A DNA stretch of 62,359 nucleotides, the filler included, from Dugesia japonica (taxonomy: Eukaryota), in assembly GCA_001938525.1 (NCBI GenBank). It is 4 parts of 4 records of this genome, joined end to end, with 100 filler letters (N's around TTAATTAATTAA, not from the genome) between each part and the next. Parts side by side here need not be neighbours in the genome. Positions count along the whole stretch, not along the records: positions 1 to 23,078 come from MQRL01409471.1; 3 more parts are not named here. One strand, written 5' to 3'. The translations under genes were made by a program, and so were the position numbers. Every line of letters begins with the position of its first letter. Position 1 is the first letter of the stretch. A model generated the notes under the pieces. That model had not been told where the DNA came from, searched no databases, and worked only from the letters and a program-made list of their open reading frames with translations. Of the stretch, positions 4,251 to 42,500 are shown one piece after another.

Positions 4251-7200
4251 TTGTTGGAATCTTTAGTAATAAATTCTGCCACAGGTTTTGTTGTTATCAC
4301 CATTACGCGGTGTCTTGATCTGATTAGGTATCTCTGTTCATCATCAGGCTTGTCTAATTTAAATCGAACTCGTTTAATTTTACTCGTTTCTGGCTCTGCG
4401 GTTACTATGTTTTCTTTGTCTGTCTCTGCCTCTTTGGCTGATAGTTTACATCTGGATACATGTACGATACTTGGTTTCTTTAACGGTTTTCCCAATTCCT
4501 TAAATTTCAGATTTGTTGAGGTTGTTTTGATTACCACACATGGGCCTTTGTTTGGTCTTTTTAATTTATCCGTCTTTCCAATATCGATTGTCGGTGTGTT
4601 TACTAACACTAGATCTCCTTTCTTAAATGTATGAGCTTCCGTCTAACGATCATGTAATTTTTTGTAACTTTCCTGATTAAATTTTGCATTTGCTTTTGCT
4701 AATTTTCACATCTCTTGCATTCGCTCCTTCATCACCATTACATAATCATCTTCATCCATATATTTTGAAATTGGTGGTTGATATTCTAGATTTATAGGCA
4801 TATTACATTCTCTTCCATACATTAGTTTGAATGGTGTTGCACTTGCCGTTGGATATACTCCTATCCTATTTGCAAATAGACATAAATTCAAGTGTTTGTA
4901 CCATTCTGTTTGATCCTTTGAGGTATAGATCAACAGCATTCTTGTTAAAGGTTGATTGAATTTCTCTGTCATTTCGTCTGTTTGATGTCCGTAATTTGTA
5001 ATTATTGAAGAAACTCGTAACTTCATTCATTAACTCACTCAGAAAATTTTTTCCTTGACCTGTTCAAATTTTCTTTGGTGGTCTATAACGACTTAATACT
5101 TTGTCTACTAATACTTTGACGATTGTCGCTGCCTTTTGATCTCTTAACGCAAATGCTTCCGGAAATTTCGATAGATATTCTACTACTGTTAAAATATATA
5201 TCTTTCCACTGTCATTCGTGGGTAATGGCCGATTATATTCATTGCTATTATATCAATCGGTGCTGCTGGCACTGAAATCGGTTGTAGCGGAACTTTGAAT
5301 TTTTTTCCTGTTCATCTTTTTGCTGCACATATCTGGCATTGTTCTACTCATGTTTTTACACTTGTCGTTATATGTGGCCAATAATATTTCGCTCTCAATT
5401 TTGATTCTGTCGTTTTAGCTGACATATGACCTCCTAATATTTCATTATGATGTTGCTCCAAAATCTTTGCTCGTCTATTTTTAGGTATTACTAACTTTTT
5501 TTCGCTTTCTTTCATCATCAACCATCAGTTTATTATTGCATATCGTACACCTCGTTTCTTTAGATGCTCTTTCATACCTTTATTACATTCAACTTTACTC
5601 AGATTGTAATGAGTTAGATAATCTAGAATTATTTTAATCTCTTCATCCTCATCTTGGTCCTTTTTTAGACCTGTAAAATCTCTGTTCTCCACTAATATCA
5701 TGCACAATCCCCTTATTTTTTGATTTATTAACTGCTGAATATTGATCACTTTGTTGTCTTGTATTTTGGTTTCCACATTCTCTTCTGGTTCATCTGTGAA
5801 TCTCGGTCTTGACATATAATTTGCATTTGCGTTTGATTTACCGGATTTATATTTTACTAATGGCGCATATTCTTGTAGCTTCATTGCATATCATGCCATT
5901 CAGTTTATCTGTAACAATTTCTGTCTGATCATTGTTGATGATTGGTATAAACTACCAATTCATGTCCAAGTATTAATTGATTGAAATGTTTTACTGCTTT
6001 TACAATTACTAAAACTTCTCGTTCCGTTTTACTATAATTCTTTTCCGCACCTTGAAATGTTTTACTGAAATAGCCAATTCCTCGTTCTCGATCCTCTTTG
6101 TCTAACTGACTTAATACAGATCCTTCTGCATATCTACTTGTATCTGTTGCTAATATGAAGGGTTTCTTGAAGTCTGGCTGCACTAATATTGGGGGTGTTA
6201 TTAATTTTTCTCGTAATATCTCGAATGCATTTTGATGCTCGTCTGTCCAAATAAATATCACATTTTGTCTCACTAACGATTGGATTGGTTTGATTATTGT
6301 CGCAAACCTTTTGATACATTTTCTGTAATAGTTTGTCATGCCTAAGAATACTTGAAAATTATTTAAATTTTTTGGTACTGGTAATTTCTTCATCTTTTCA
6401 ATATTCGCTGGATCTGGTTGCTTTTCTTTACCAGAAATAAGATGAACTAAATATGTCACTTGATTTTTTGCCCATTCACGCTTTGTAGGTTTTACTCTGA
6501 GATTTTACATTCTTAATCGTACAAATACGTTGCGTAAATTTTTTAAGTTACCCTCAAATTTCCTTGAAAATATTAATAAATCATCGATATATACCATCCT
6601 TCCGTGTGTCACAAAGTTCAAAGATCGTTGAAATGATGCTGGTGTATTTGTCAATCCAAATGGCATCTTCACAAATTGACACAGATTTTTACATGCGTAA
6701 AATGCTGTTTTCTCTTTATCTTCTTCTTTTATTTTGATATACCAATATCCGCTTCGTAAATCCAATGTCGTGAAGATTTTTAAATTATATAATAGCATTA
6801 GCATCTCATTGGTATCTGGTAACGGATACGTATCTTTCTTTGTCTTAGCATTTAAATCTCGATAATCGATAGAAAATCTCGTTGATCTGTCTTTCTTTTT
6901 GACTAATACTACTGGGAATTGCCATGACAAACAACTTGGTTCTATTATATTATTTTTAGCATATTCCTGATTTTCTCGTTGCATATTGGTTTATCCACTT
7001 CCGCCGATTTGTAAGTTCTCTTTTTAATTAGGGTTTCGTTTGTTAAGATGGTGGCGTGTTTTATTACTGAACAAGTTCTTAGTTCATTATTTGTCCTCGC
7101 GAATATATCTCTGAATTCTTCCAGTAGTTTTAGTAATTGTATTTTCTCCATTACTGTTAGTATTGATAATTCCATTTTGAATTTTTGATTCACTTCTTTC

Positions 7201-7384: not shown

Positions 7385-9990
7385 TCCGTTGTTGAGCATA
7401 CCTTTCTTTGTATTTGTTTTTTTCTTGCAGTTCCTAAATGGGCACTTGAATGGTGGCCCTTGCAAATCTATTTTGATAGGATATTCTGTTTCTGGTTCAG
7501 TCGTTTTTATCTCGATATCTGTTGTTGTTCTGGTTATCTCGCTTTCTTCAGGTTCTTCATTTACGTTGTTATCTCCATTGATTGTTGTAGTTGTTGTTAT
7601 TGTCGTTGCATTTGTGTGACAGCTCTTTGTGTGTTTCTCTAGCCATTCTTTAGTAGCATAGCCTGCATAGCAATTATTATGCTGGCACTTGAATTTGCTA
7701 TCTTTTTGATTTTCTATTGGTTGTTCTTCATGTGCCGATTAATCTCTTTTTTCTCGTTTGCTTTAAATTCGCATAGTTCGCACTCATTGAGCCTCATCAG
7801 GTTATCATTTAATCCTTTCACTGTTGTATCCACAATGTATAGGTCATCTGCATAGGCGCCATATGTTAGATTGTATGGTCCTTTATCTGTTTTCAGTCTT
7901 AATCCTTCCTTCAGGTTAGCCGATTTTATGGCATGGTCAAACACTATGTTGAATAATGTTGGTCCTATAATGCAACCTTGTCTCACTCCTCTTTTCATCA
8001 TGAATCGTTCGTCGCTAATTCTGCCTTCAACACCGTTGTGGAATTCTTTGATTATTCTTATCAAGTTCAGTGGTACTCTTATTCTTTTCAGAGTTTGCCA
8101 CATTATATCTCTTGGTATGCTATCAAATGCCTGCTCAAGGTCTATGAATGCACAAATTACCTGATTTTTTTTGTATCTTGCTGCTTCTTTAATACTCTCT
8201 TTAATATGAATATGCTTTGTATAGTTGATCTTTTACTTCTGAATCCGAATTGGCTGTCATCCAATGCTTTTTAACTATATTCCTGTAGCCTCTTATTAAC
8301 GATTTTGGCTAGAATTTTTCCATAGATTTCTAGTAGGAATATTCCTCTATAATTGGATGCATCTGTTTTTTTTCTCTTTCCTTTGTATAGGATCTTTACT
8401 TCTGCGTTTCTCCATTCTTTCGGGAATTCGTCTTCTCCAGTCCATATCTTTTTGAGGTCTTTGTACATCTTTTCTAGTAGTTCTGTTTTTCCGTATTTGT
8501 AAGCCTCAGCTGGTATCCCGCTTTCCCCAGATGCTTTGTTATTCTAAAGCTCAATGATTGCTTCATATATCTCTTTTTTTGTTGGTGGTTCATTATTAAT
8601 ATCTTCGTTTTCTTGGTTTTCGCTTACTGGTCTGTTGTTATCGCTTCCCGTGTTGGTTGTTCTTTCTTGTTTTCTGAATAGTTCATTGAAGTAATTTGCT
8701 AGTTCTTTGTCACTGATTATCTGTATGCCATATTTTGTTTGCGTTCCTTTATCTCCAACTTGCAATATTTCTTTTATTATTTCATTGCTCTTTCTCGTTT
8801 CATTTATCTTTATTAGTTCCTCAGCTTCTTCACCTTTCTTAATTATCCACTCTTCTCGTTTTTGTTTTATAAATCTTGATAGTTTCAATCTTGCTTTGTT
8901 GTAATTGAGCTTGTTTTGTTGGTTCATGTTCTTTATATATTCTGCTTTGTATTTTCTCTTTTCATCATTTAGTCTTTCTATCTCACTTTTGTGCTGTTCT
9001 GTCCATTCTCTGTTCTTTTTCTTTTTGCCCGCATTTTTCTTTAGACACTTTTTGATTATATCTGTTGTTTCTCTCCATGTCGAATTGACTGTGATCTCTG
9101 CTTTATTTAACTCTTTCTTTAGGTCCTCTTTATATTGCTTTTCATTTCTTTTCAGGTTTTCTCCATCGAATCTTTCTTTAGGCTTGTCTTTTTTTGCCTT
9201 TTTGATTATTTCTTTTGAGTCGTTGAGTTTCGCAATTATTGAGAAGTGATCACTGTTGATGTCAGCTTTGTTGTTTACTTTTATGTTCTTTATAAATCTT
9301 TTTGATTTTTCATTCGTCAGGAAGTAATCCAGCATTCTCTCTTTTCTTATCGGAGGATGTATCCACGTTCTTCTGTTGCTCTTTTTGTTTTTTAAGAATG
9401 TACTTTCTAGTCTGTATTTGTTATCTTCACAGAATTTGATCAGTTCCTTTCCATTTTTGGTTGTTTCGCCAATAGTGTATTTCCCTACACTAGTTCTGTT
9501 TCTATCCTCTTTACCGACACTACAGTTAAAGTCGCCTCTACTAATTGTTGCTTTATTTTGTTTCGTAATTGTTCCCAATTCTTCGTAAAATTTTCTGATT
9601 TCTATTTCTGTGCTGTTGCATTCCGTTGGTGCGTAGCATACAACAAGTTTTTCGGTTTGATTTTTGATGTTTATTTTGCTTTTGTCCAACAGATCCACTG
9701 AGGCCATTCTATCATTTATTGCACTGAACTTGATGTCATATTTTCTTTGTAATTCGTTGGTAATTAAGAATCCTACTCCATTTGCCCTGGTTTTTCAGAC
9801 TTCTACACCACTTGTGTATAGGGAGTAGTTTTTGTTTTTTTCTTCTGTACTGAACATATGTGTCTCTGTTATCATGGGAACATCTAGGTTGTTATCTCTC
9901 ACTTCTCGCACAATTTGAATTTTCTTTTCCACGGAGTTCATTGATCTTACGTTCCATAACATATGGTGGAAATGATTCAAAAATTCTCAT
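7385..9990 (-). mobile_element. RTE-like LINE (APE endonuclease + RT + C-terminal C2H2 fingers), internally deleted
   Basis: WNVRSM...ITETH, YAPT, GDFN, LDY, SDH (APE); NYRGIFLL, AFIDLEQAFDS, GVRQGCIIGPTLFN, YADD (RT). The sequence then jumps directly to CELC...HMKNN, CQHNNC...H...H and CPFRNC fingers. Confidence 0.88.
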
Positions 9991-12750: not shown

Positions 12751-12789
12751 TTTTCAAAATATTTTGTATTTTTAATTAATTAAATATTT

Positions 12790-12996
12790 GTCCCTTCTAC
12801 ATCGAGTAAAAATAAATCTAAAACAAATGATATTCGCCTATCTATTTGTAGAAAATATGATAATGGTAAAACTGTGAAAGAGATATCAAAAGATTTTGAA
12901 TTAAACTACACAACGGTCATATGTATTGTTAAACAATATATATTAAGAAATGTCGTGGTTTCAGAAAAATTTAATTATGGGAGAACAAAACTTAAA
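12790..12996 (+). mobile_element. Tc1/IS630-like transposase HTH fragment
   Basis: Manual translation: KTNDIRLSICRKYDNGKTVKEISKDFELNYTTVICIVKQY...GRTKLK. Confidence 0.55.
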
Positions 12997-13040
12997 TTAA
13001 ACTTTTAATCTGAGAAGCGATTTCCGATGATATGTCTGTA

Positions 13041-13189: not shown

Positions 13190-13294
13190 TGGGTTAGCGT
13201 CTTGGTTTTTGATTTTTCGTTTTTTGAAAAATAGAAATGCAAATGCTAACGCAAATGCAACTGCAAATAAATTTTTATTTTATTAGTAAAGAAA

Positions 13295-14602
13295 ATGGTT
13301 ACAACAAAACTTGATCTTGATAATAATATTAATTTTCAACATTTCTTTTTGAAAAATGATATTTTGAGAATTTCACCCTCATCTGGATCAATTAATAATT
13401 TAATATCTTCTGGTGATATTGTTTTTCAATCTTTACAATCATCAAATCTATTAGATATTTCAAATTCAATGCTATATTTTAAAATAGAAATTGATGTTAA
13501 AGATGGAGATAAAATAACTTTGGAAAATAATTGGTTTCTAAGTTTATTTAAAACAATGAGATTAGTAGGATAACTTTAGGATCTTCAAATGTAGAAATAA
13601 TTAATTACCCTGAAACAGTATCAACAGTATTAAATTTTTTAGCAACTAGTTCAACTTATAAAAATATATACGGTGAATTATCAGGTTGGTTACCAGATAC
13701 AAACAAAGGAGATTTAGATATTACTAGTTGGGGAGCAAATATAGGTTTTTATAAAATAAATAAATTTTATAATACAAAAAAAGAAATTTGAAGGTTATTT
13801 TTCATTAAAAAATTTATTTGGATTTATGTTATAATTATTATATAATACAATGATTAAATTTACATGTAATAGACAAATAAATTATAAATTATTATTTTAT
13901 GGTGATAAAGATAAAACAGCAACTTTAAAATTAACAACTTTAGAATTATACATCCCAGAATATAGATTACTACCAAAAATGGAAGTAAATCTATTGGAAA
14001 GAATCAATACAGATAAATATATTCAAGTTTCATTTTAAAATAGAATTGTCAAAAAAAAACAACTTTAGATTCAGGAAATTATTATTCAGTTAAACTCAGT
14101 AATTTAACTTATAAACTAAGATATATATTTATTGTAAAAAAGGATTTAGAAATTTCATATCTAAAGAATAATAATTTATTTATTCAAAGAATATCGAAAA
14201 CTGTTAAATAAGGAACTCCAGCTGTGGATGTAACTAAATACTATTCTCTTAAAAGTATTCAAATACAATCAAATAATACATTATTCTATAAATGAATGTA
14301 AATTTAATATTGATAATAATGAAATGATTTTACCTTATTTAAATTATTTAAATTTTTGTAAAGATTTCTTTTGTGAACGACAATTATCTTTACAAGAGTT
14401 TGGTGATTTGTATCCAATCTTTTGTTTTGATGTTAGTTCTCAAGACGATAAATTAAATATTAATAATGTAGGTGTAACTTTACATATAACTAAGGACAGT
14501 GATTTTGAAGGAACTTTATATTGGTGTATTTTAGAAGAAAAACATATTGAAATGAAATTATCTAATTCTAAAATTGTTTTGATAAACGAGGTGAAAATTT
14601 AG
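13295..14602 (+). pseudogene. Maverick/Polinton major capsid protein (double jelly-roll), disrupted
   Basis: ORF pieces 13295, 13850 and 14324 plus bridging frames: LLDISNSMLYFK...NNWFLSLFKTMRL, VEIINYPETVSTV, SGWLPDT, LELYIP, YPIFCFDVSSQ. Adjacent to Maverick integrase and pPolB remnants. Confidence 0.75.
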
Positions 14603-14662
14603 GTTAAAGTTTTCGTCTGCAGACGACACTTTTTAATTTCAAGTTTAAAATATATAAAATAG

Positions 14663-15190
14663 ATGAGCTTAAAAATAAATGCACTTGTGAAAATTGTAAC
14701 AAAATATTACTTAGAAAAAATAAAGCTAGACATTTAAAAGTATGTAAAAAAACAGGAGGCGATCTACAATCTTCTAAATTAACTTCTGCAATTTTAAAAC
14801 CATTTACTTGGGAAAAGTATATAGAAGAAAGACATTTGGCTGATGTAAATTTAATTCATGATTTAAATAATATTCAAAATCCAACTACATCTGAAAAAAT
14901 ACAAAGGGGCTTAGTAAAATTAGCAATCAAAGGTAATATTATTTTAGGTGGAGAAACGAACGAAGAAAGTTCCATTCCTATTGTTAAAAATAAAGAAATA
15001 TTATCAAACGAACTTTGTGCCAAGAAATTACATAAATATTATAGAAAACTAAAACATTTTCTAAAAGTAATAATAAAAGAAAAAGATAATACTTGGTTGT
15101 GATATTATTGATATGGTTAAAAATCAAGTAATCCTAACGGGTCTCATGGTTATAGATATATTTTAGTTTGTATTGATTTATATTCTAGAT
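14663..15190 (+). pseudogene. Maverick Zn-finger/PLA2/integrase fusion, copy 1 (PLA2 core deleted)
   Basis: CENCNK...RHLKVC; RHLADVNLIHDL...ILGG... continuing in one frame (14836-15102) to AKKLHKYYRK...DNTW; then DIIDM...GYRYILVCIDLYSRF (rve integrase N-terminal part). Confidence 0.8.
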
Positions 15191-15780
15191 TTTTTTTTTG
15201 ATATTTATATTTAAAGATTCTAACTCTATCTCCAATTTTAAATTTCTGTTTTTGTTTTAGTGATTTCGAATATTATTTAAATCATGAATTAAATTTACAT
15301 CAGCCAAATGTCTATCTTTAATGTTTTCTGACTTGTAAGATAAATCGTGTTTTAAAGCTGCTTCATCAACTGTATTAATTGGTTGTTCTCCAGGTTTGGG
15401 ACTATCTTCAGAATCTAATCTTAAATTTAATCTTGTTCCTGGGACAGTATAATTAGGTTTTAACAGGATACTTTTCCCAAGTAAATGGTTTTAAAATTGC
15501 AGAAGTTAATTTAGAAGATTGTAGATCGCCTCCTGTTTTTTTACATACTTTTAAATGTCTAGCTTTATTTTTTCTAAGTAATATTTTGTTACAATTTTCA
15601 CAAGTGCATTTATTTTTAAGCTCATCTATTTTATATATTTTAAACTTGAAATTAAAAAGTGTCGTCTGCAGACGAAAACTTTAACCTAAATTTTCACCTC
15701 GTTTATTTTCAATCAAAACAATTTTAGAATTAGATAATTTCATTTCAATATGTTTTTCTTCTAAAATACATCAATGTAAA
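15190..15780 (-). pseudogene. Inverted copy 2 of MCP 3' end + Zn-finger/PLA2 gene, ending in an integrase C-terminal piece
   Basis: 15468-15780 is a near-identical reverse complement of 14515-14820. Minus strand encodes NYTVPGTRL...PINTVDEAALKHDLSY...DRHLAD, then KFKIGDRVRIFKYKY. Confidence 0.85.
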
Positions 15781-16072: not shown

Positions 16073-16320
16073 AAATTTTATACTAGTCGATAAACATTAT
16101 CTGAAATTTCATAGTAGTCGATAAAGATTTTATGAAATTGCACAGTAGTCGATCAAAATAATCTGAAATTGCACAGTAGTCGATAAATATTTCAAAATCC
16201 TATGTAAAAGAATAGGGAAATAATTCAATTATTGCATAGAAGTCTCCAAATATTTTATGAAATTACAGTGTAGTCGATAAAACTTTTATGAAATTGCACA
16301 GTAGTCACAAATTATTTTAT
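16073..16320. repeat. ~31-bp degenerate tandem repeat (aaattgcacagtagtcgataaa...tg)
   Basis: About six units sharing TAGTCGATAAA and TGAAATT; probably Maverick subterminal repeats. Confidence 0.7.
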
Positions 16321-16653: not shown

Positions 16654-19527
16654 CTATATCAACACAATACTTGCTTGGCTTTTATCATTGTAATCTGTTA
16701 ACGCTATTTTCTTTTGTTTAATTAATTCAATTTCATGTTTATTTGATTTTAAAGTATAATTAGTTCCATGAATTATATTTTTTATTTCTAAAACTTTATC
16801 AAATTCTTTCATTCCTATTTCATTAAACTTAGAAACTTCTTTATGTCTTTTGTCTAACTTTATGTTATTATGAGACCAGTTAGGATTATTTTGAGCTTCG
16901 CAATCCCTATATTCACAAGCATAAGTTTTTGATTTTATAAAATCACATTTGAATATTTCGTTATTCATTTGAAATAAATTATTACCTAATAAACTTGTTA
17001 CTTTGTTTAAATTATCTTTTCCAATTATTTCTATAAAAATTGAATCTATATCAGTATAATGAATTTAGTATTTATTTTGAATTGCATTATCTAACTGATT
17101 ATAAATAAAATCACAAATTACTTCTTTTGCATATTCCAAAATAGTGAAACTTATATATGGGAATTTATTATATTTTAATTTTGTTTGTCTCAAATGAATT
17201 GCAGCTGTTTCTGCTTCTCCAGTTTCTGTGCATGTAAATATTTTACTAGATCTAAAGTTTATCTCTGAAGCGAATTTCTGATAATCTTTATCAGTTCCAA
17301 ATATTTCTACTTCACATCGTTTTCTTATATCTTCTAGTGTTTTTCCATAAAATACATTATTTAATAATTTGAAAAAGTAATCTCCAAATACATCGTTATT
17401 TCGTTTTGATATATTTCTTTGATTTATATTAAATTCAATATAATCTTTTAACCAAGGTTTTTTTAACATTTTATATTTACTATGAATTGTTTTTATTTTC
17501 ATTCCTTAAGATAAATACAAATCTAATGTACTTCCTAGAATAATATAATTTTGTTTATCAAATTTATTTAAAGTTAATTTAATATTTTTCTTAGTTAATT
17601 TCTTGTTAAATGATAATTGATAAGGAGCTAACATTTCATTTGTAATGTTTATTGGATCTGGTGCTAAAGAAAATTATTTTGTTTTTTCATGTATTTTTGG
17701 TGGATATTCTAAATCAACTACTTAAATATAATTCATTACATCTGTTTTTGGTGTGTAAGTTAAGTCTTGACATTCAAAGATTTCACCTGTTGGTAAAGGC
17801 TTAGTCATACAAGATGCATATAATGAATTTTCATCTAAATATTTTAAAAATGTTTCTTCAAAATAATCTTCTGGATGATATTGTTTATTTTTTAATAAAT
17901 TTAATAAATCATCATACTGAGCATTATTTATTTTTTTATTAATTCTTTTACTATTTTCAAAAACTTGTCTTTCTTCACAAACACCTGAATAACCGCCTCT
18001 AACAACTCTTTCAATTTTTAAAACTGTATTATATGTGTCTTCTTGAGCATATTTTAATTTAACTCTAGTAAATTTTGTTCCTGAAGCCCAAGTTAATCCT
18101 GGTGCAGAATATGTATAACTAGGATCTATGTTATAAAAATTTAAACAAATTTCTATTAAGTTTTCAAAGAAATCTGTTAAGATAATTACATCTAATTTTA
18201 AATAATGTAACATGTATTCAAATAAGGTTGTGTGGATTTCTAAATCTTGTAAAAATTCGTTGTATTCTTGTTCTGTTATTTTTTGTTGTTTAAGTTTATT
18301 ATTTAAATATTCTCTTGTTGGAATTCGATCTGATTTTAATAATTCAATTACTTCATTTATATTTTCTTCTTTTACATATTCTTAAGGAAATGATATTTTC
18401 TTTGGAGTAAAATTAAATAATTTTAAATGATTATATTTATTAGATTGATTTAATAATTTTCCCATTGTGTCAATTGAAGTAAATGGACACATTCTTGAAG
18501 AATCTAAAAATCTATTTTTTTAAAATTCAATTGAAATATAAACTTCACCACTGTGAGAAATTATTCTTTTAACTTCTTTTGGATATTTTTCTAATAATTC
18601 TCAGAAAAATATATGATTGTCGTATCCTAAAGCATTATGAAAAAAAGGAATAAATAAATCTTTTATTGATTTGTCTTGCAAATTACAAATTTTTTGAGCA
18701 TAACCTCTAAATTCACCATTAAAGTGATCATGATCAATAACTAGATTTTCAATTATATTTTTATTACAATATCAACATTTTTTATTGATAAATTGTGAAT
18801 GGTTTGTTCCTCTATAATATTCAATTAATTTATTTTCTTTTATATCTTTTAATTTATTATTAATTTCTTCTAAAAATTCAAAGAATTGTTCATGAATGTT
18901 TTCTCCATAAAATACTTTTTATTCATTTTGAATAAAATGTTAATATTTACTTGTGATGTAAATTTCAAGAGATAATGGTTTTTGTTTATTTGTAATTGTA
19001 CTTGTCCAACTTTCAAAATCTCCATAAATTACAAAAGGTAATTCATTTGTGAAATAATTTTTTTTTAATTAAAAATATTTATCAGTTTCAAAATAAACAT
19101 TTGATGAATCATGATATATACATTTTTTTGATGATTTATTAATAAAACTTTACTTCTATATATGAATTCATACAACATAAACACAATTCATTTTTATTTT
19201 TATTAGTATTTCTAAAGACACTATTTCTACATAAAATATAATGACCTTGGTAAAGTAATAAATTACATTTAATCTCCTCAGGTTTAGGATTACTTTCATA
19301 ATGAGAAATATAAACATGATAGATTTTAGCCTTGATACATTCAAATACATTTACTTTAAAATCATTAAATTTTTCAAATATTTTTACATCATCAATACTT
19401 ACCGGAAAATTAATTCCATTTATTTTTAATTCAGGAATAAATTGTTTATAAACACTTGCTCGAGTTTGATGATTTTGAAAAACATGTTTATGAGCCAAAA
19501 CAGAATATAAAAAACAATAATTATCAT
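16654..19527 (-). pseudogene. Protein-primed family B DNA polymerase (pPolB) of a Maverick, with an EndoVII-like insert
   Basis: Exo I YGDFES (~19020); VIDHDHFNGEFRGYAQKICNL (EndoVII-like, ~18700); FHNALGYD; YLKLDVIILTDFFE; YLDENSLYASCM; KLLNNVFYGK; YTDIDS (~17050). Many stops and frameshifts. Confidence 0.92.
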
Positions 19528-22115
19528 AGTAAAAAGACTAAATATAAAGTCATTAATATTAAGTATTTATTTAAGAATATATATTTTGTTTTATTCAAAC
19601 AAAATTGAATGTTTAAATAATCACTATTTTTTAACTTCCCTCTCCATAGAAATTGAAACTCGTTTTAGCCATTCAACTCGTCTTGACTTTGGTTTATCTG
19701 GAAAATTCAGTAAGACTTGATGGGGACTTAAAAACGTAATAATCGTATACGGCCCTTCATATCTGTTTCCACTTTTATGCATATTATGAGGTTCCTTTTT
19801 TACAAGAACATTTTCACCAATTGCAAATTTTCTGTGACCTCTTGTATCTGATTCTTACTTTCTCATTTCTTCCGCAACTCGTTTCAGTTCTACTTTTGTT
19901 TCATTGATTACTGGTTCATGATTAGCGGGCTCATTTCTCGACAACCCATGTAACAGCACTTTTCGCCCATTTAGAACTTCAAATGGAGATCTCTTAATAG
20001 CGCTTTGATATGTTGCATTAATTGAAAATTCAATCTTGGGAATGTATTTATCCCAAGTAAATCTATTTTTATCACTATTCATTGAAGTGGCTAACATATC
20101 TCTGACTGTTCTAATTGCTCGCTCTGCTAGACCGTTGGTTTGATGTTGGTAAGGTGATGTAAATTCCTGTGTAATTCAAAATCTTACACACAACTCGTTT
20201 ATTTTGCTACCTTCAAAAACTCTACCCCGATCAGATAAAATTGATTTTGGTTTTCCAAATTGGTAAATCCATTGGTTCTTTATTGCATCTGATATTGCTG
20301 TTTCATCTTGTTTACTAAGAGGTATCAATCGAACTAGTTTGCTAAATCTATCGATAATAACAAGCAAGTACTTTTGATTAGACTTATACTCAGAAAAGTA
20401 AGCCACATCTATTACAATTTGTTCTAGCGGTTCAAATTCTTCTCTTGGTAACAATAGTATTTTTGTTCGACCAGTGTAGACCTTTTGTTTAGCACATATT
20501 TCACATTTTTGAATTTCGTGTTCTATTTTTCTACTCATATCAGGCCAGAAATATATCTCTTGAATATATTCCACTAACTTCTTGATTCCTAAATGACATA
20601 GCTCTTTGTGCAAGTATTTAACTAATTTTGGTGAGTGATTTTCTAGTATAACGATTAGTTTCTTTTCTTATTCATCTTTAATCACAATATTCCCAAATAA
20701 TTTGAATTTATCTAAATGTTTAAAATATTTGCTTTTCTTCACATCAGTAGTAACATTATTATCCAAGCCTTGTAACCATCGTATTATTGATCTTATTATT
20801 CCACATTGATTGTGCAACTCTTCAATATTTTCGTCATAAAATACATTTTCATTTAAACTGTTTATAAATCGAATTTTCGATTTAGTTTCTTTACCATCAT
20901 GGTGTTTCAATTTATCAGTTCTAAATACCCACTTTCCTGGATTAACGTTTTAATTTTGATGCTTTAATTGATTCAAATGCTTTTTCTAATCTATGATTAG
21001 GTTCATCGACAGTTCTTACATAAACTAAAATGTCATCTAAATAAACACTTACACCTTTATACAGCATTTCTTTAAAAATCAAATTCATTAAACTCTGAAA
21101 GGTTGCCGGTGCTGTACATAAATCGAATGGCAACCGTTTAAAGCAGAATTGTCCAATTTTAGTACTAAAAGCTGTTTTTATTTGTGAATCTTCGTCTAAC
21201 ACAACTTGATAATAAGCTTGTCCTAAGTCCATAGATGAAAAATAGTTGATCTATTTAAAGTATCCAAAAGTGTGTTTATGTCAGGTACGGGAAATGAAAA
21301 TTTTTCAGTTACTTCATTCAACCGTCGAAAATCCAAACACATTCGGATAGAATCATCTTTCTTTGGTACTATCACTAAAGGAGAATTCCATGTGGTTTTA
21401 TATGATCGTATAAATTTTGATTCTAACAAATCTTCAATTAATTTATCAACTTTATCTTCTAAATGCATTGGCTGTCTTCTTGGATTTTGAGAAATTGAAG
21501 GTCCTTTAGTATTACATGATGCTTAATCAATGTAGTGATTCCTAAATCAAATTTGGATGCCATGAAAATCGATCCATATTTTTTAGTTAGGTTTTCAATA
21601 AATGGAGTTCTGTCAGAAACATAATTTAATGCCGTCTTAACCCGATAACAATCCGTATATGTTGTATTTACTTCAGAAGAATCAATCAACTTTACTTCTG
21701 CCAAGAATACTCTACATAATTTCATCATATCGATTCCACCAATAAAACCAGGAGAAATACTTTTAACAACCAAGGTTTCTTTTACCAAAGGTTTATTTTT
21801 TTATAAAACTTGTATAAATATCTTACCAAGACATGATTTATGCTTTGAAGAAAAAACACATGACAATTTAACTTCTGACTTTATCATACTAGGTGCACCA
21901 ATTCGGATCCAATTTTCTTCACTCATCACTGTTATTGATGCTCCAGAATCCCACAACATTTCAATATCACAGCCATTACAATTTATAATACTCCATTGCT
22001 GCCCATCTAACTTCTGAAGCATCCTAAATTTTGCATTATCCATCTCATCTTCTTCTTTTCTATCTCTATTATTAATAGAATTTATTGACTCAACTCCACC
22101 GACGAGTTAGCTACA
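19528..22115 (-). mobile_element. 5'-truncated Gypsy (PR, RT, integrase; RNase H deleted) with a 109-bp 3' LTR
   Basis: LWDSGAS protease; CLDFRRLN, LGQAYYQ, YLDD; H-H-C-C zinc finger and integrase core; purine tract GGAGAGGGA next to an AGT...ACT-bounded segment at 19528-19636. Confidence 0.9.
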
Positions 22116-22120
22116 GGGAG

Positions 22121-23078
22121 TTATAACTTTACATATAACTAAAGATGCTGATTTTAAAGGGTCTTTATGTTGGTGTATTTTAGAAGAAAAAAATATTGAA
22201 ATGAAATTATCAAATAGTAAAATTGTAATGATTGAAAATAAACGAGGAGAAAGTTATGTTTAGAGTNNNNNNNNNNNNNNNNNNNNNNNNNNNNNNNNNN
22301 NNNNNNNNNNNNNNNNNNNNNNNTTTGTGAATATTGCAATAAAATATTACTTAGAAAAAATAAAGCTAGACATTTAAAAATATGTAAAATAAAATTGGGA
22401 GGTGATCGCGAAGCTCCTTTCAGTCTTGAACAAGAGAGAGCTCAAGCTGAAGGCGATCTTCAATCTTCTAAATTAACCTCAACAATTTTAAAACCATTTA
22501 CTTGGTAAAGTATCCAGGAAAAGACATTTGTTTAAACATAATTATACTGGTTTCGCAACAAGATTAGATGAAAATAATAATCCAAAACCAGGAGAAGAAC
22601 CAATTAATAGAGTAGATGAAGCAGCTTTGAAACATGATTTATCTTACAAATCTGAAAACATTAAAGATAGACATTTAGCTGATGTAAATTTAATTCATGA
22701 TTTAAATAATATTCCTAATCCTAGTATTTCAGAAAAAATACAAAGANNNNNNNNNNNNNNNNNNNNNNNNNNNNNNNNNNNNNNNNNNNNNNNNNNNNNN
22801 NNNNNNNNNNNNNNNNNNNNNNNNNTATCAAATGAACTTTACAAAGAATATAGAAAACCAAAACATTTCTTAAAAGTAATAATAAAAGAAAAAGATAATA
22901 ATTGGGGTGTTGATATTATTGATATGGTTAAAAAATCAACCGAGGGTTATAGATATATTTTAGTTTGTATTGCTTTATATTCTAGATTTGGTTTTTGTGT
23001 ACCCATGAAAAATAAAAACCAAGAATCATTAAAAGAAGCTTATGAAAATATATTTGAAGAAAATAATCGAATTCCTGA
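22121..23078 (+). pseudogene. Maverick MCP 3' end + Zn-finger/PLA2/integrase fusion, copy 3
   Basis: Homologous to 14480-15190. ORF 22528 onward: NYTG...PINRVDEAALKHDLSY...DRHLAD [N gap] ELYKEYRKP...WGVDIIDM...YRYILVCIALYSRFGFCVPMKNK...NRIP. Confidence 0.85.
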
Positions 23079-23122
23079 NNNNNNNNNNNNNNNNNNNNNN
23101 NNNNNNNNNNNNNNNNNNNNNN

Positions 23123-23134
23123 TTAATTAATTAA
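23123..23134. other. Artificial contig linker TTAATTAATTAA in an N spacer (also 35248-35259 and 46942-46953)
   Basis: Identical 12-mer with stops in all six frames, flanked by 44 N on each side, seen three times. Confidence 0.95.
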
Positions 23135-28342: not shown

Positions 28343-31300
28343 TTATTGTTAATTGATTTCGTCATAATAACAACTTTTAAATTGGTAATGTTTATTTCAA
28401 TCACAATATTTAAACAAATGAATTTATTAGTATTAAAATATTAATACTACATTACTACTCTCTCTAATCTGGAGGGTTCTTGAGGATGAATGCTGGACGT
28501 GTTCTATCCACTAAAACGCTTTCGATTTTTACCTTTTCTCATTCTTTGTAGTACCTTACCATCTTTGTCTCGATTCGTAATTGCATAAGGTCCTTCATTT
28601 ATTCGCTGCAGTGGTCTTCTGTTTTCACTTTTGATCCAAACACTTTTGCCTTTTTCCATCTCTCTTGGCATGAACACCTTCATAAAACCGGGTGACCTTA
28701 ACCGATTATTTCGAATTCTGTTGATATCATTGTTTGCTGGTTGGAGCATGATGGAAGGATAATGTCACCTGGCAACCTCACTGTTGTTCCAAAAACTACT
28801 TGTGATGGCGATAGTTCAGTTTCCTCGCTATCCAAATTACGCAATGCCATCATAGTTATTGGTATCTCATCAAGCCATTCACGTTCTGCATTTTCCGCCC
28901 CTGTTCGCAATGCATTTTTGAGAGTTCTATGAAATCTTGCTATCTTCTCATTGTATTGGGGATGGTATAGTGTAGTACGCTTGTGCTTAATTCCAAATGT
29001 ATCACAGAATGTGCTGAACTCTCTTGAAATGAATAGTCGTCCGTTGTCTGTTATCATAATTTCTGTTGCTTCAAACGCGTTATCCAGTCTTTTATCTTCG
29101 CTGTAACTATGATTGGCGTAATTATTTCTCTCAGTGGGGCCACTTCAGTCCATGAGGTTTCTCTATCAATTACGGTAAGCAAATATGTGTTACCTTTGGA
29201 GGAAGATAGAGGTCCTACTATATCTAAATGTACTACTTTGAATTTTTCTAAGTTTGGTAGTGTACCAATTGGTACTTTTATGTGCCTTGAAACTTTATTG
29301 GCTTGACATTTAAGACAGTGTTTACACCAATTGCGGATTTGAGCTCTCATTTTTGGCCATACATATCGATCTGATATAAATCTGATGGTAGCATTAGTCC
29401 CCTGGTGAAATAGATTATGCAGCCTTTCAAATTCATTATATCTTAATTGCTCTGGGAGTACAATTCTGAGATTTGTCTTTGATTTTTCAAATAATATTCC
29501 TTCTTTGACTCTGTGCAGTTTCAGCGAGTGTTGTTTAATATTAATCAATGATTGATCATCTTGTTGGTTTCTCAATAGATCTGTTATTGATGCGTGACTA
29601 ATAACTACATGATTCTTTCATCGTGACCATCTGATTGTTTTGATATTATATCTGCTACTACATTTTCTTCACCTTTAATATACTGCAGTTGCATATCTTG
29701 TTGACTAAGAAATTCCGTCCATCTCCATTGTCGCCCTTAGGGTTTTTTTATTTGCGTTGAACTCAACAAAGGTTTGTGATCCGTGCGAGCGATAAAGGTG
29801 TTTGATTGAAAGTACTAATGCCAATAGTTCTCTGTCAAAGGTAGAATATTTGCATTCAAATGGTTTTAATTTTCTAGAAAAGACAGCAATAGGATCCAAG
29901 CTTACGGTCTTCATTTTCTTGGTTTAAACTTCCTCCAACAGCTAATCTTGATGCATCAGTGTATAATAAAAATGTCTTTTGTTGATCAGGAGTTGCCATT
30001 TTTGTCATTTCAGTTAGTTTTTGGATTGCTTTTTGAAATGCTATGTTGTATAGTGATGACTATTTAATCAATTTCTTCTTTTTATATGGTGTTATAAGTT
30101 CATGTAGTGGAGCAAGTGGCTCTGATAATCGTGGAATCATCCATTGATAGAATGTCATAGTGCTAAGAATCTACTTTGTGCTTTTGCATTTCTTGGTGTT
30201 GGTAAATTTTTGATAGCTTGTATTCGTTCATTGATAGGCTTGATAGCTTTCTTGAATATAGAGAATCCTAGAAATTCCACTTTATTTTTATTGAGTTGAC
30301 ATTTATCTGAGTTGATGTTCAATCCATGTTTTTTAAGTTCCAACATGACTTGTTTAATATGAAATTCGTGTTTTTTGTAATCTTTGGAGTAGATAAGGAT
30401 GTCATCAATATAAGTAAATGCTAAAGCTTGACAACTGTTTAGACACTTGTCCATATGTCTTTGAAATGTTTATGATGCATTTTTCAATCCAAATGACATC
30501 TTTCTGTATTCAAATAGGCCAATTGGTGTGATTAATGCTGTTTTGTGGCTGTCTGATTCTTGGATTGGAATTTGGTGGTAGGCTTTTCTAAGATCCAGTG
30601 TGAAGAAAATATTACATCCATTGATTTTGTTTAGTATGTCACTCNTTTTGGGAAGTGGATATCTGTCTCGCTTGGTTATTGAGTTCAACATTCGGTAATC
30701 GCCACATGTTCGAAATGTTTCTTTCTTCTTGACCACTACCATTGAAGATACCCATTCGCTACTGTTTGGTTGAATAATGTCTTGTTTAATTAATTCTTCA
30801 AATTCAAGTTTGATTTGTTTCATAATTAATGGTCCTAATCTTTGAGCAAGTTGTTGAACTGGTGGNNNNNNNNNNNNNNNNNNNNNNNNNNNNNNNNNNN
30901 NNNNNNNNNNNNNNNTTTGGTGGTAGGCTTTTCTAAGATCCAGTGTGAAGAAAATATTACATCCATTGATTTTGTTTAGTATGTCACTCTTTTTGGGAAG
31001 TGGATATCTGTCTCGCTTGGTTATTGAGTTCAACATTCGGTAATCGCCACATGTTCGAAATGTTTCTTTCTTCTTGACCACTACCATTGAAGATACCCAT
31101 TCGCTACTGTTTGGTTGAATAATGTCTTGTTTAATTAATTCTTCAAATTCAAGTTTGATTTGTTTCATAATTAATGGTCCTAATCTTTGAGCAAGTTGTT
31201 GAACTGGTGGNNNNNNNNNNNNNNNNNNNNNNNNNNNNNNNNNNNNNNNNNNNNNNNNNNNNNNNNNNNNNNNNNNNNNNNNNNNNNNNNNATTGTTATG

Positions 31301-32499
31301 ATAATCTATTAAAAGACGATGTTTTGACAAAAAATTTGATCCCAATATTAGACGCTTGACATCGGCTAATGTAAACGTCCATTTAAATGTGGCTTGAATA
31401 CTTGGTATATGAAGTAAGATTGTCTTTTAACCATAAACTACAATTTCGCTTCCATTTGCAGTTAATAATGAATGTTTAACATTGTTGTTATTTGGTATAA
31501 ACATTCGATATGTCAGGATGCTGATATCTGCATCTGAGTCAATTAAGAATTGATATTGATTATTGTTTGATCAATCTGAGACTGTGAAAATGGATTGTAC
31601 TTCTTCCGACTGTTTGGGTTTGTCGTGGATCTCAGTGATCGGTTTCAGTGAGAGCCATTGACTTTTCTTGAATTGAAACTGCAAAGTGATTGGCATTTTC
31701 TTGCATTTCTACCAAATTTTCTGTGGAAGTAGCATAACTCTTTGTTTGACGTTATCTTATTTAGTATTTGTCTTTGTTTGGCTTTGATTGCGTTGATCTC
31801 ATCACGTATGTTGCTGATTGTGATTTCGTCATATTGATTTCCCATTTGCCTGATGTCAATAATTTCGACATTTTAATCATTCATCTCGAAATGATATTCT
31901 GCTAACTGTGTTATTCTTCAAGGCTTTTGCTTCTGTGCTGAACTAAATGATGTCGCATGTATTTTGGTAGATATTCCAAGAACTTTAGTCTCAAAATGTT
32001 GTAATTTTCTGGATTTCTATGTGGCTCAATGATTTTGTAAAATTGTTTCATTTCTGTCAACTTTCTTGATGGAGTCTTGTAAGAATTAGTAATGGGATTC
32101 ATTGATTTATTCATGGCTTCCTTTGTTGACATTGTGGTTCTGCGTAGTATTGAAGCTTTCAGTTTCTNGTATGTGGATTCAACTTNTGGATCCATTTCAT
32201 GTGACACTAGGTCCAGTATNTCTGGTGGGAAACTGGTAAGTTAATGCNAANATTTTGTTCTTGAATTTCGGATATTTGATAGCTCAAAAGCTGCATCCAC
32301 TTGGGCAAACCAATTTGCTGAGTTTGAGAAGTAATTTGGTATTCTGATTTGGACATAGTTTTCTTCAGCACTTCTGACACCATTATTCTTAATTGATTTC
32401 GTCATAATAACAACTTTTAAATTGGTAATGTTTATTTCAATCACAATATTTAACTAAATGAACTTATTTGTTTATTAGAATGAAAATATTAATACTACA
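28343..32499 (-). mobile_element. Full-length degenerate Gypsy with ~110-bp LTRs, tRNA-Leu PBS and TSD
   Basis: LTRs 28343-28451 and 32383-32499; PBS TGGTGTCAGAAGTG (32369-32382); TSD CTAA(T) on both sides; gag WFAQVDAAF and CYFHRKFG...C...C; protease FLIDSDADIS; RT YIDD; RNase H; integrase. Confidence 0.93.
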
Positions 32500-39534: not shown

Positions 39535-42500
39535 AGTTAAAAAACTTGAACTTTCCATAAGTATTTATTTTAAATAAAAACTATTTATTAATAATGAATT
39601 ATTTAAACAAATAATATCATTTAATTTTAAAAACTTAAAAATTTTATATCATTTTATAAATGATATATTACTGCTCTTTCTCTTTTAATTTTCATTATCA
39701 ATTTTCTTCAGCCATTCAAGTCTTCTGGGTTTAAGCTGTCCTGCATTATCTATAAGCACCTGATGTGGGCTTACAAATTTACTAATTTTGTAAGGACCCT
39801 CATACCCGGAACATTCTTTCTTTAACTTATGTAGTTCTACTTTCTCTAATACTCTCCCCCCTTCTTCAAAATGTCTGGACGTTTGCTTTTTACAGTTGTA
39901 TTTGTTTAGTCTTCGAGCTGCTTTCTGTAAATTTCATCTGCCAGTTTTTTCATTTCTTCGTGTTTTGAATTTCCTTCTTGTGGTAATCCATGTTAGACTA
40001 TTCTTCTTTCAAAGATAATTCCAAAAGGAGATAGAGCCGTCGATTTTTGTTGTGTTGCATTTATTAAAAACTGAGTTCGTGGAATCAATTTGTTCTAACC
40101 TAATTCTGTGCAGCCGTTTTTAATCGTGGTTGTCATCATATCTTGCAGTGTTCTGATATTTCTTTCTTCTAAACCATTTGATTACTGTTGATATGGGGAT
40201 GAAAATTCTTGTTGAATCTTAAACTTCTCTGCAAGTGACCACATTAACTTTCCTTCAAAAATCTTTGCTCTGCCAGTCAAAAATGATTTTGGCTTACCAA
40301 AACGATATATCCAGTTTTCTTTTATCGTCTTAACTACCAATGTTTCATCCTTTTTACTTGACGCTACGAATGACACTAACTTACTATACCTGTCAACTAT
40401 GACAAGAACATATTTACTTTTGGTTCTCACTCCTGGAAAGTAAGTGACATCCATGATAACTTATTCTAATGGTCCAAATTCTGTTCTTGGAATAAGAAAT
40501 TCCTTTGTTCGTCCAGTGTATGTTTTACGCATGTTACATATCATACATTTGTTTAGTTGATGTTCTACATTTCTTTGCATATTTGGCTAAAAATAACTTA
40601 CACTCAAACATTTTGTCAGTTTTTGACCTCCCACCTGACATAATTCATCGTGTATGAAATCTTTAAGATCGGGTATCGATTTTCATGCCAATACAAATCT
40701 TTTCGTGTCTCATTCATTGATTATCAGTATCTCATCATCCAACTCAAACTTTTCGAGTTTGGTAAAATACTTACTTCTGGTCACCATTGTGCTCAACTTA
40801 TCATTTACCATTCCACTTTCAATATATTCAATGATTTCTCTCGTTATTGGCTTGTTTCCTTGTAATTCTTTAATATGGCTTCTATCAAAGTTAGTTTTGT
40901 CTTAAGTGTTGATTCTTTTAACTCAAGATCGTTCCCATTTGGCATCTTGAAGTATAGTCTGACATTGCGAACAAAGAATTTCTCCTATCGTTGAAAGTCC
41001 ATCAGCATTTCCACGAGCTGCTCGTTTTTGGAATTTTAGATCAAAATTAAATTCTGCTGGATTTGTTATCTATGTTTGAAACTGAGAACTAATGGGCTTA
41101 CTAGTCTTTGTCATAAAGGTCAATGCTTTAGGATCCGTTCTTTCTTTAAATATTTTGCCATACAAATAATGTTTAAAATACATGATAAACTCATGCAGAG
41201 CTAACAATTCCTTGTGAGTAACACAATATCCTTTTTCGTGATTGTTTAAAGTTCGAGAACCATATGCTATAACCTTTACCAATCTATTATCCATTATATC
41301 ATTCAAACCCCCCAATTGCTCCAAAACTAGCATCTGTATCCAATAACATTTCTCCCCTATTATTTGGGAAAGTCAAAATCGGAGCACTACACAATTTTAT
41401 CTTCAAAGATTGAAAACAATCTTCACATTCTATTTTCTCCATTCAATGTTCTTTTCTTTTCCTGTCGTCGCTGTTTACAATGGTGCTGCAAGTAAAGCAT
41501 AATCTTTTATAAAACGACTGTAATAACTTGTTAATCCTAAGAACGCTCGTATTTGCGTGGCGCATTTTGGCGTTACGGCTTCTCAAATTTTTTTCGATAG
41601 TTTCATCATTTGTCTCTACATCTTTAGCGCTAATTATATGTCCTAAAAATTTCAGCTTCTTGGAATTTAACACACATTTACTTGGATTTATTTTTAAACC
41701 CACATCCAGATATACTTATTCTCCTTTGTACAACTTTCTTTCAAATATTTTATGCATCAAGCTTTGAAATGTTGCTGATACAGTACATAATCCGAAGGGC
41801 ATACGATCAAAATAAAATTGACCTATCTTTGTACTAAAAGCCGTCTTCAGTTTTAATTCTGCGCTTAGTTCAATTTTATTATATGCTTGCCCTAAATCTA
41901 AAGAAGAAAATAAAACTGATCCTTTAAGAGGATCTAATAATACTTGAATATCTGGAACTGGAAACGATTACTTTTCTGTAATTGAATTCAATTTTCCAAA
42001 CTCAAGACAAATTTTTATCGTCCCATCTTTCTTTGGTACAATTACCAATGGGGAATTCCATGGACTTGTGCAACGTCTGATAATATTTGATTTTCTCAGA
42101 TTTTCTAACTACTCGTCTATTTTATTTTTCAAGTGCATTGGCTGTCTTCTTGGGTTTATCATTATAGGACGTACTGTCGTTTCAATGTAATGTTGCATCA
42201 GTTTCGTATATCCAAGATCAAATTTTGATGACATAAATATATCTTTGTAGGTTTCTATTATTTTTCTTTATTCTTGACTGACATTATTTAAAGCATTAAA
42301 GTCATTTCTTACCCTTTCTGTATTATCGGTAAAGAGATTTTCATCGTTTGAGTTAATAAAATCAACTTCAATAATTCTCATTCCGAATAACTTCATATCA
42401 ATATCTCCGATAAATTTGGGAGAAATATTTCTGACAATTATTACTTCTTTCTCTTTTAGTTTCCAATTCCATTGTAATTTGAGTTTAGTTTTTTCGATAT

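Follow-up and report, generated by a model that had tools for sequence, protein, structure and literature searches.

Does the phospholipase A2 (PLA2) of Maverick elements form one gene with the integrase, and if so, what becomes of the joint product? The question was raised by a stretch of 62,359 nucleotides (filler included) from Dugesia japonica (GCA_001938525.1), hereafter the window, in which a sequence-only reading had recognised three partial copies of a gene that joins a Zn finger, a parvovirus-type PLA2 and the integrase, with an adenain-like site (ILGG) at the junction of the two enzymes.

Maverick/Polinton remnants in the window

The window is AT-rich (GC 22-37%) and, as a profile scan of its frames showed, filled with decayed retroelements. 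The region of approximately 13.3-19.5 kb is a rearranged and decayed Maverick/Polinton (Polintoviricetes) remnant, containing capsid-protein fragments, the fusion gene, an inverted partial duplicate and fragments of a protein-primed DNA polymerase B (pPolB). A second remnant was found at 22.1-23.1 kb, with the same order (capsid end, Zn finger, PLA2, integrase) and 80-93% DNA identity to the first, and in both remnants the fusion gene follows directly after the capsid gene. The capsid-protein (MCP) fragments are located at 13271..14602 on the plus strand; the fragmentary PF21738 match (14234-14599, E 0.0026) is below the cut-off, the upstream frames were assigned by position only, and the ESM Atlas MCP/DJR clusters, with scores of 0.96-0.97 for the capsid fragments, have low recognition value. 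The decayed pPolB gene (16657..19537, minus strand, outer limits from ORF positions) was recognised by a PF03175 match above the cut-off (17725-18381, E 2.9e-9), and an Endonuclease_7 match (18604-18771, E 1.6e-4) lies within the same gene region. The remnant is truncated, and no Ulp1/adenain-like protease, packaging ATPase or minor capsid protein was found among the 104 + 24 window frames scanned, the best tblastn match for the protease in the window having an E-value of 0.65. Self-BLAST of the window gave no repeat pair flanking the remnant as terminal inverted repeats, and the ends of the remnant were probably lost.

We found a perfect 14-bp palindrome after the MCP stop and ahead of the fusion gene (14613..14626, with a second at 15662-15675 in the inverted copy) and, shortly upstream of the ATG at 14663, a TATATAA-type motif; palindrome and motif are possibly termination and promoter signals. 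Imperfect repeats of approximately 31 bp with AGTAGT occur at 16080-16310, in the interval that separates the inverted copy from the pPolB gene. The remnants are surrounded by decayed retroelements of Ty3/Gypsy-like and LINE-like types and by an HTH fragment of the Tc1/mariner type (profile scan: 19627-22106, 5932-6990, 7717-9794, 28701-31426 and 40185-41967 on the minus strand, and 12784-13005 on the plus strand).

Three broken copies of the fusion gene

Self-comparison and tblastn confirmed the three partial copies at the places where they had been read, and none of the three is whole. Copy 1 (plus strand) has a stop-free frame of 164 aa at 14608-15102 that includes the Zn finger; the ORF at 14836-15102, proposed before to link the PLA2 end to the integrase start, indeed does so in one frame, but is only part of this longer one. 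The frame holds a C2HC zinc finger (CxxC-x11-H-x3-C, 14686-14745) that aligns with the Zn fingers of the intact relatives P0002-P0005 described below, a di-glycine (GGD, 14755-14763; candidate cleavage site 1) between the Zn finger and the PLA2, the C-terminal helices of the PLA2 (14821..14940, from tblastn and alignment, with ERHLAD at 14827-14844), the ILGG junction (14941-14952, from frame reading; candidate cleavage site 2) and the start of an rve integrase (15028..15198, with LHK at 15028-15036 and DNTW at 15085-15096), which is in frame to the stop at 15100-15102 and is followed by frameshifted fragments. A tblastn search with relative P0003 matched copy 1 over 14683-15198 (E 8e-34). The Zn finger is not in frame with the ATG at 14663 (feature 14663..14745), and copy 1 lacks both the Ca loop and the HDxxY core of the PLA2.

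Copy 2 (minus strand) includes an inverted duplicate of the MCP end, the intergenic region and the Zn finger (15468..15780), in which 15780-15468 is 97% identical to 14515-14820 over 313 bp. It contains the PLA2 core (15263..15478, PF08398 E 4.2e-6, above the curated cut-off; DEAALKHDLSY at 15367-15335) and jumps from the PLA2 helix to a C-terminal integrase fragment (15204..15251, tblastn with P0003 395-410, 94% identity, E 0.001); the junction is missing. Copy 3 (plus strand) has the MCP end and the zinc finger with GG-D at 22124..22505 (81-88% DNA identity to copy 1) and a single stop-free frame that covers the PLA2 and the rve integrase at 22492..23130 (PF08398 E 1.7e-7; PF00665 E 0.0023, below the cut-off). 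The junction of copy 3 is an N run (27 X codons) on the length of which the continuity of the frame hinges, so that ILGG is legible in copy 1 only.

The Ca loops read NYTVPGT in copy 2 and NYTGFAT in copy 3, both damaged; since neither has an intact YxGPG, the motif string given in the sequence-only reading is a composite. The parvoviral-type catalytic helix (D-x5-HDxxY) with a downstream Asp was found in copies 2 and 3, and the PLA2 and integrase domains in the window are well above chance. By itself ILGG is not strong evidence, because [MIL]xGG occurs five times in the 19,291 residues of the stop-free window frames of at least 60 aa.

Intact relatives of the fusion gene

When copy 3 was used as a query among longer proteins, five matches were obtained from 178 candidates and all five were fused. 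These relatives (P0001-P0005) are single proteins of 389-463 aa with both PF08398 and PF00665 (the latter with E 4e-14 to 1e-5), without a stop between PLA2 and integrase, and four of them have a Zn finger at the N-terminus. The claim that the two enzymes form one gene in Mavericks was thus borne out. A profile of the five relatives gave 957 matches, and both families were present in 106 of the best 120, one match being named as a gene model of a coral (Oculina patagonica). To avoid the bias of a PLA2-containing query we also ranked on the integrase only; a PLA2 with HDxxY was then found in 18 of the 20 best, 37 of the 40 best and 76 of the 120 best matches (of 671), and the remainder of these 120 comprised four proteins with only the PLA2 end and 40 without a PLA2 by BLAST, several of which nonetheless start with the junction motif. 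In a search with the PLA2 only, integrase sequence was found downstream in 29 of the best 150 of 275 representatives, which is no estimate of the fused fraction because many other PLA2 matches are fragments. ESM Atlas clusters of 184, 111 and 72 members, for which both families were present in 78-99% of the members (scores below 0.9, hence a lead), included one that was automatically named after both families. Of the database proteins, 130 are single-ORF fusions, with 64 left after a cut at 75% integrase identity.

An integrase tree was made from 183 proteins, minus 11 without a usable integrase start and plus copy 3 of the window, thinned at 75% identity to 88 rows. The unrooted tree consists of two clades (SH-aLRT 100). 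The clade of copy 3 (58 rows) comprises 48 fused proteins, seven with PLA2 remnants and three labelled as integrase alone; copy 3 itself adjoins the intact fusion P0001 (69% identity over 83 columns). The other clade (30 rows) is mixed, with 16 fused, 10 stand-alone, two remnant and two protease-fused forms, in which fused and stand-alone forms are interspersed and near-identical pairs are found in opposite states; therefore, either the fusion has arisen or disappeared several times in this clade or part of the gene calls are in error. On these sequences the fusion is labile in the chromodomain-bearing clade. The chromo motif was absent from 75 of 100 scored fused proteins, and the clade of the window appears to lack the chromodomain. 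Judged by the database proteins, the PLA2-integrase fusion of Mavericks is genuine and widespread. For the genomic context of the relatives, two scans of genome contigs gave 363 and 23 pattern matches, none of them a relative, and no match was obtained by tblastn against 50,697 phage records.

Conservation of the two enzymes

Among the best 120 of the 957 profile matches the catalytic residues of the PLA2 were kept almost without exception (D95 in 117/117, H101 in 116/116, D102 in 115/116, Y105 in 117/117 and D117 in 117/117), as were those of the integrase (D226 and D288 both in 120/120, E322 in 119/120). In the same set the Ca loop, Y/F-x-G-P-G, had its G in 108/113 and its P in 108/116 proteins. 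From this conservation both enzymes look active in the family. An AlphaFold2 model based on an alignment of five sequences was a low-confidence multi-domain model (mean pLDDT 58); structure searches with it returned the retroviral integrase fold (Z 15.9, rmsd 3.3, 154 aligned), and no PLA2 structure was among the matches listed, which is uninformative either way because of the low confidence and the multi-domain nature of the model. PLA2 matches in sequence searches of the PDB were weak (AAV capsids E 0.42; putative PLA2 entries 2wg7/2wg8 E 1.1-1.7). Three relatives (P0316, P0319 and P0329, 92-97% identical to each other) have the PLA2 flanking helices and GxG before the integrase and lack the catalytic core; the in-frame core loss of copy 1 resembles theirs and was probably caused by decay.

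Glycine motifs flanking the PLA2 domain

An adenain site is canonical if it reads [MIL]xGG-x or [MIL]xGx-G, the hyphen marking the cut (PMC12517501, S1 Fig legend). The ILGG of copy 1, which had been read as an adenain-like junction site, fits this pattern, but a canonical site ([MIL]xGG or [MIL]xGxG) was present in only 12 of the 130 fused proteins; there is no conservation of xLGG, a junction GG was found in 18 of 130, and ILGG as the conserved site was rejected. The motif that is conserved at the junction is K-x-x-x-G followed by GG or GxG (119 of 130 fused proteins), with the upstream Lys in 130, the first Gly in 128, GxG in 105 and GG in 18, vs a background of five GG and six GxG per 32,148 residues in the integrase. 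At position P4, 70 of the 130 proteins have K and 25 have R (together 95), and the second junction Gly (G154) is kept in 100 of 119. P1 was G in 14 of the 23 proteins in which P1' is not G, vs four of 105 otherwise (Fisher p 1e-9), an either/or pattern that matches the canonical adenain alternatives (PMC12517501); a kinship-corrected test of P1 and P1' was not significant (eight independent pairs, 2.7 with and 1.0 against, sign test p 0.625). The linker between the junction and the integrase varies from 8 to 66 residues.

In 148 further PLA2 matches the motif was present in 19 of 25 linked to an integrase, in 46 of 65 with other tails and in four of 17 ending within six residues (of the rest, 29 stop upstream of the site and 12 have no HDxxY), and thus it marks the end of the PLA2 family when something follows and was not invented by the fusion. 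Approximately nine non-fused PLA2 matches have no GG or GxG at the site, most of them no Gly at all, so the PLA2 domain seems not to need the motif. In the low-confidence model the junction Gly (G152) comes directly after the last PLA2 helix (132-151), and therefore it may act as a helix cap. Two proteins, P0279 and P0309 (integrases 56% identical to each other), have an adenain-like protease (PF00770, E 0.12 and 4e-4, respectively; His, Asp, Gln and Cys motifs visible) in front of the same integrase family. Their junctions are KTGAG and MVGG, with no PLA2 helix to cap, which argues, albeit from two proteins only, for a role of the glycines that is independent of the helix.

Another motif, missed in the sequence-only reading, is the GG upstream of the PLA2, which on the aligned proteins is better conserved than ILGG. 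It was found in 75 of 82 relatives with enough upstream sequence, or 61 of 66 when the rule was tightened, and each of the three window copies has it; it is a true di-glycine with a variable P4. The 11 residues after this GG had a mean hydrophobic moment of 0.44, vs 0.27 for shuffles, and were more amphipathic than shuffles in 55 of 61 proteins (individually significant in 19); the window's own segment is not amphipathic (moment 0.19). As an analogy only, the segment is reminiscent of the amphipathic helix in adenovirus protein VI (PMC4113798). The Zn finger, read as a part of the fusion, is indeed in the window frame but proved to be a variable add-on and was rejected as a core domain, since before the upstream GG a finger of the C2H2/C2HC type was found in 12 of the 130 fused proteins, another CxxC module (DUF5679 in those scanned) in 23 and none or a short N-terminal stretch in 95, some of which are perhaps N-truncated gene calls.

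Comparison with known systems

A parvovirus-type PLA2 in Polinton/Maverick elements was described before. The PLA2X of the Alpha (Mayetiola-class) adintoviruses is a gene of its own with a pX-like C-terminal domain, for which a role in membrane disruption was proposed (Starrett et al. 2021, PMC8502044); the non-fused PLA2 relatives found here have the same C-terminal glycine motif, whereas in the fusion the PLA2 is followed by an rve integrase in the same ORF and does not stand alone. Similarly, the CAP ORF of the insect elements Sf Maverick 1 and 2 has an N-terminal parvoviral PLA2, and these elements also carry INT, PRO, POLB and ATPase, but CAP and INT are separate ORFs and INT has a chromodomain (PMC5803895), which the clade of the window appears to lack. 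In Group 2 Maverick-Polintons and Gosseviruses a phospholipase domain is common beside a cysteine protease and is treated as a capsid-associated gene, but the text covered makes no mention of an RVE fusion (bioRxiv 10.64898/2026.06.19.733378; PMC7805220). The rve integrase of mavirus is related (BFVD match, E 2.5e-10) and packaged in the particle of a virus with a maturation protease; it differs in being a 358-aa integrase for which the source passages mention no PLA2, and the protease substrate reported there is the capsid protein (PMC6428243, PMC6723459). The PLA2 in the unique region of parvovirus VP1 has the same motifs but is tethered to a capsid protein (PMC4113798). Adenovirus precursors also have glycine-based maturation sites, and protein VI an amphipathic helix near its N-terminus (PMC4113798, PMC12517501), but canonical adenain sites need M/I/L at P4 (PMC12517501), which most of the fused family lacks.

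We found no description of a PLA2-integrase fusion in the literature passages covered. Where the passages covered mention a Polinton PLA2, it is a separate gene or an unplaced domain (e.g. PMC8502044, PMC5803895), and a fusion to the integrase is not mentioned in the covered text of PMC3671162, PMC4642659, PMC11296320, PMC11071296, PMC11131425 and 10.64898/2026.07.28.741253, nor in that of the other papers cited here. The fusion thus is apparently undescribed, yet already visible in automatic annotations.

A probable packaged precursor and its alternatives

The database proteins show a single ORF, conserved catalytic residues of both enzymes and two conserved glycine motifs at the borders of the domains, and the glycine motifs suggest cutting by a protease. 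We lean towards a packaged precursor that would be cut at both motifs by the protease of the element, giving a PLA2 for entry and an integrase that stays with the genome; what we infer are the time of expression, the packaging, the cleavage, the protease responsible and the role in entry. The precursor, with the layout [optional Zn module]-GG-[amphipathic helix, PLA2]-GxG/GG-[linker]-[integrase], would be made alongside the structural genes and carried into the particle by its PLA2 part, as the rve integrase of mavirus is packaged in the particle (PMC6428243, PMC6723459). The Ulp1/adenain-like protease of the element would then cut at the glycine motifs, for which K/R at P4 must be tolerated; Polintons encode an Ulp1-family protease, and in their pPolB there is a vOTU domain with predicted protease activity (PMC11161782). 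The released PLA2 would help to breach the endosome, in line with the role of the parvoviral PLA2 in endosomal escape (PMC4113798), and the released integrase would travel with the genome. A more far-reaching version, which we hold tentatively and at somewhat less than even chances, is that a large and so far undescribed Maverick lineage loads its integrase into the virion as a Pol-like precursor ([Zn]-GG-PLA2-GxG-integrase), that it is cut by an Ulp1-type protease which accepts a basic P4 and that the motif is a general cut tag by which the integrase can be joined to varied packaged partners (PLA2, protease). To be counted against the precursor are the mostly basic P4 (95/130) and the few canonical adenain sites (12/130), the possible helix cap in the model and the motif in 46/65 non-integrase tails, the window in which no protease gene was found and in which the post-GG moment is 0.19, the kinship-corrected p of 0.625 and the seemingly labile fusion in the chromodomain-bearing clade.

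Several of these points would fit a fusion that works uncut, its junction glycines being a helix cap and flexible hinge taken over from the PLA2 gene and its PLA2 a handle for packaging or targeting the integrase. The helix end at residue 151 adjoining G152 in the low-confidence model, the basic P4 unlike that of adenain, the motif shared with non-fused PLA2s and the covariation that lost significance after kinship correction all agree with it. A cap, however, accounts for one Gly and not for the second (G154, 100/119), and leaves the upstream GG and the glycine junctions of the protease-integrase fusions unexplained; the approximately nine non-fused PLA2s without GG/GxG and the linker of 8 to 66 residues do not fit either, and we consider an uncut fusion unlikely, though deserving some weight. 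Enzymes of the vOTU and Ulp1/deubiquitinase types generally cut after GG. A cut at the upstream GG only, exposing the amphipathic helix or dropping the Zn module, or a cut by another protease (the pPolB vOTU or a host enzyme of the Ulp1/deubiquitinase type) would agree with the upstream di-glycine (75/82) and its variable P4, with the scarcity of GG at the junction (18/130) and with the predicted activity of the pPolB vOTU (PMC11161782). Nevertheless, conservation of the junction GxG/GG (119/130) equals that of the upstream site and points to a constraint common to both, and we judge such a scheme quite improbable.

Doubt about a role in entry could be drawn from the clade in which fused and stand-alone forms mix, with near-identical pairs in opposite states, and from P0316, P0319 and P0329, in which the catalytic core is missing but the flanking helices and GxG are retained. 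The PLA2 would then act at another step (nuclear envelope, egress, signalling) or as a scaffold, and its link to the integrase would be an operon-like compaction; given the near-invariant catalytic residues and the almost uniformly fused clade of the window copy (48 fused, seven remnants and three alone of 58), this is very unlikely. A local artefact of decay, rearrangement or fragment stitching is hardly credible as the origin of the fusion: none of the three copies is intact, the locus has an inverted, rearranged structure and the junction of copy 3 is unreadable, but the window copy groups with the 130 single-ORF database fusions (64 at the 75% integrase-identity cut), and an artefact was rejected because intact fusions were found by the copy 3, profile and integrase-only searches.

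Polintons encode capsids and a maturation protease. In the literature searched we found no report on how a Polinton integrase reaches a new cell or on what the Polinton protease cuts. In more than 100 database proteins a conserved entry enzyme is attached to the integrase, which argues that this lineage spreads via particles and not only by intragenomic copying. If the precursor with a cut tag is true, a substrate code would for the first time be predicted for Polinton proteases, and there would be a mechanism by which an extracellular particle delivers an integrase. The fusion also points to the two exact candidate cut sites named above. The profile matches are automatically annotated as integrase or transposase, and such pipeline labels hide the fusion architecture.

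Variant architectures

Some relatives show further arrangements around the glycine motifs. In P0224, P0250, P0183, P0199 and P0208 PLA2 and DUF5679 occur in shuffled order on one or the other side of the glycine motif, and in one protein of this set MBT repeats are joined to a PLA2 piece. In P0015, several tandem QKGG repeats are located between the Zn finger and the PLA2.
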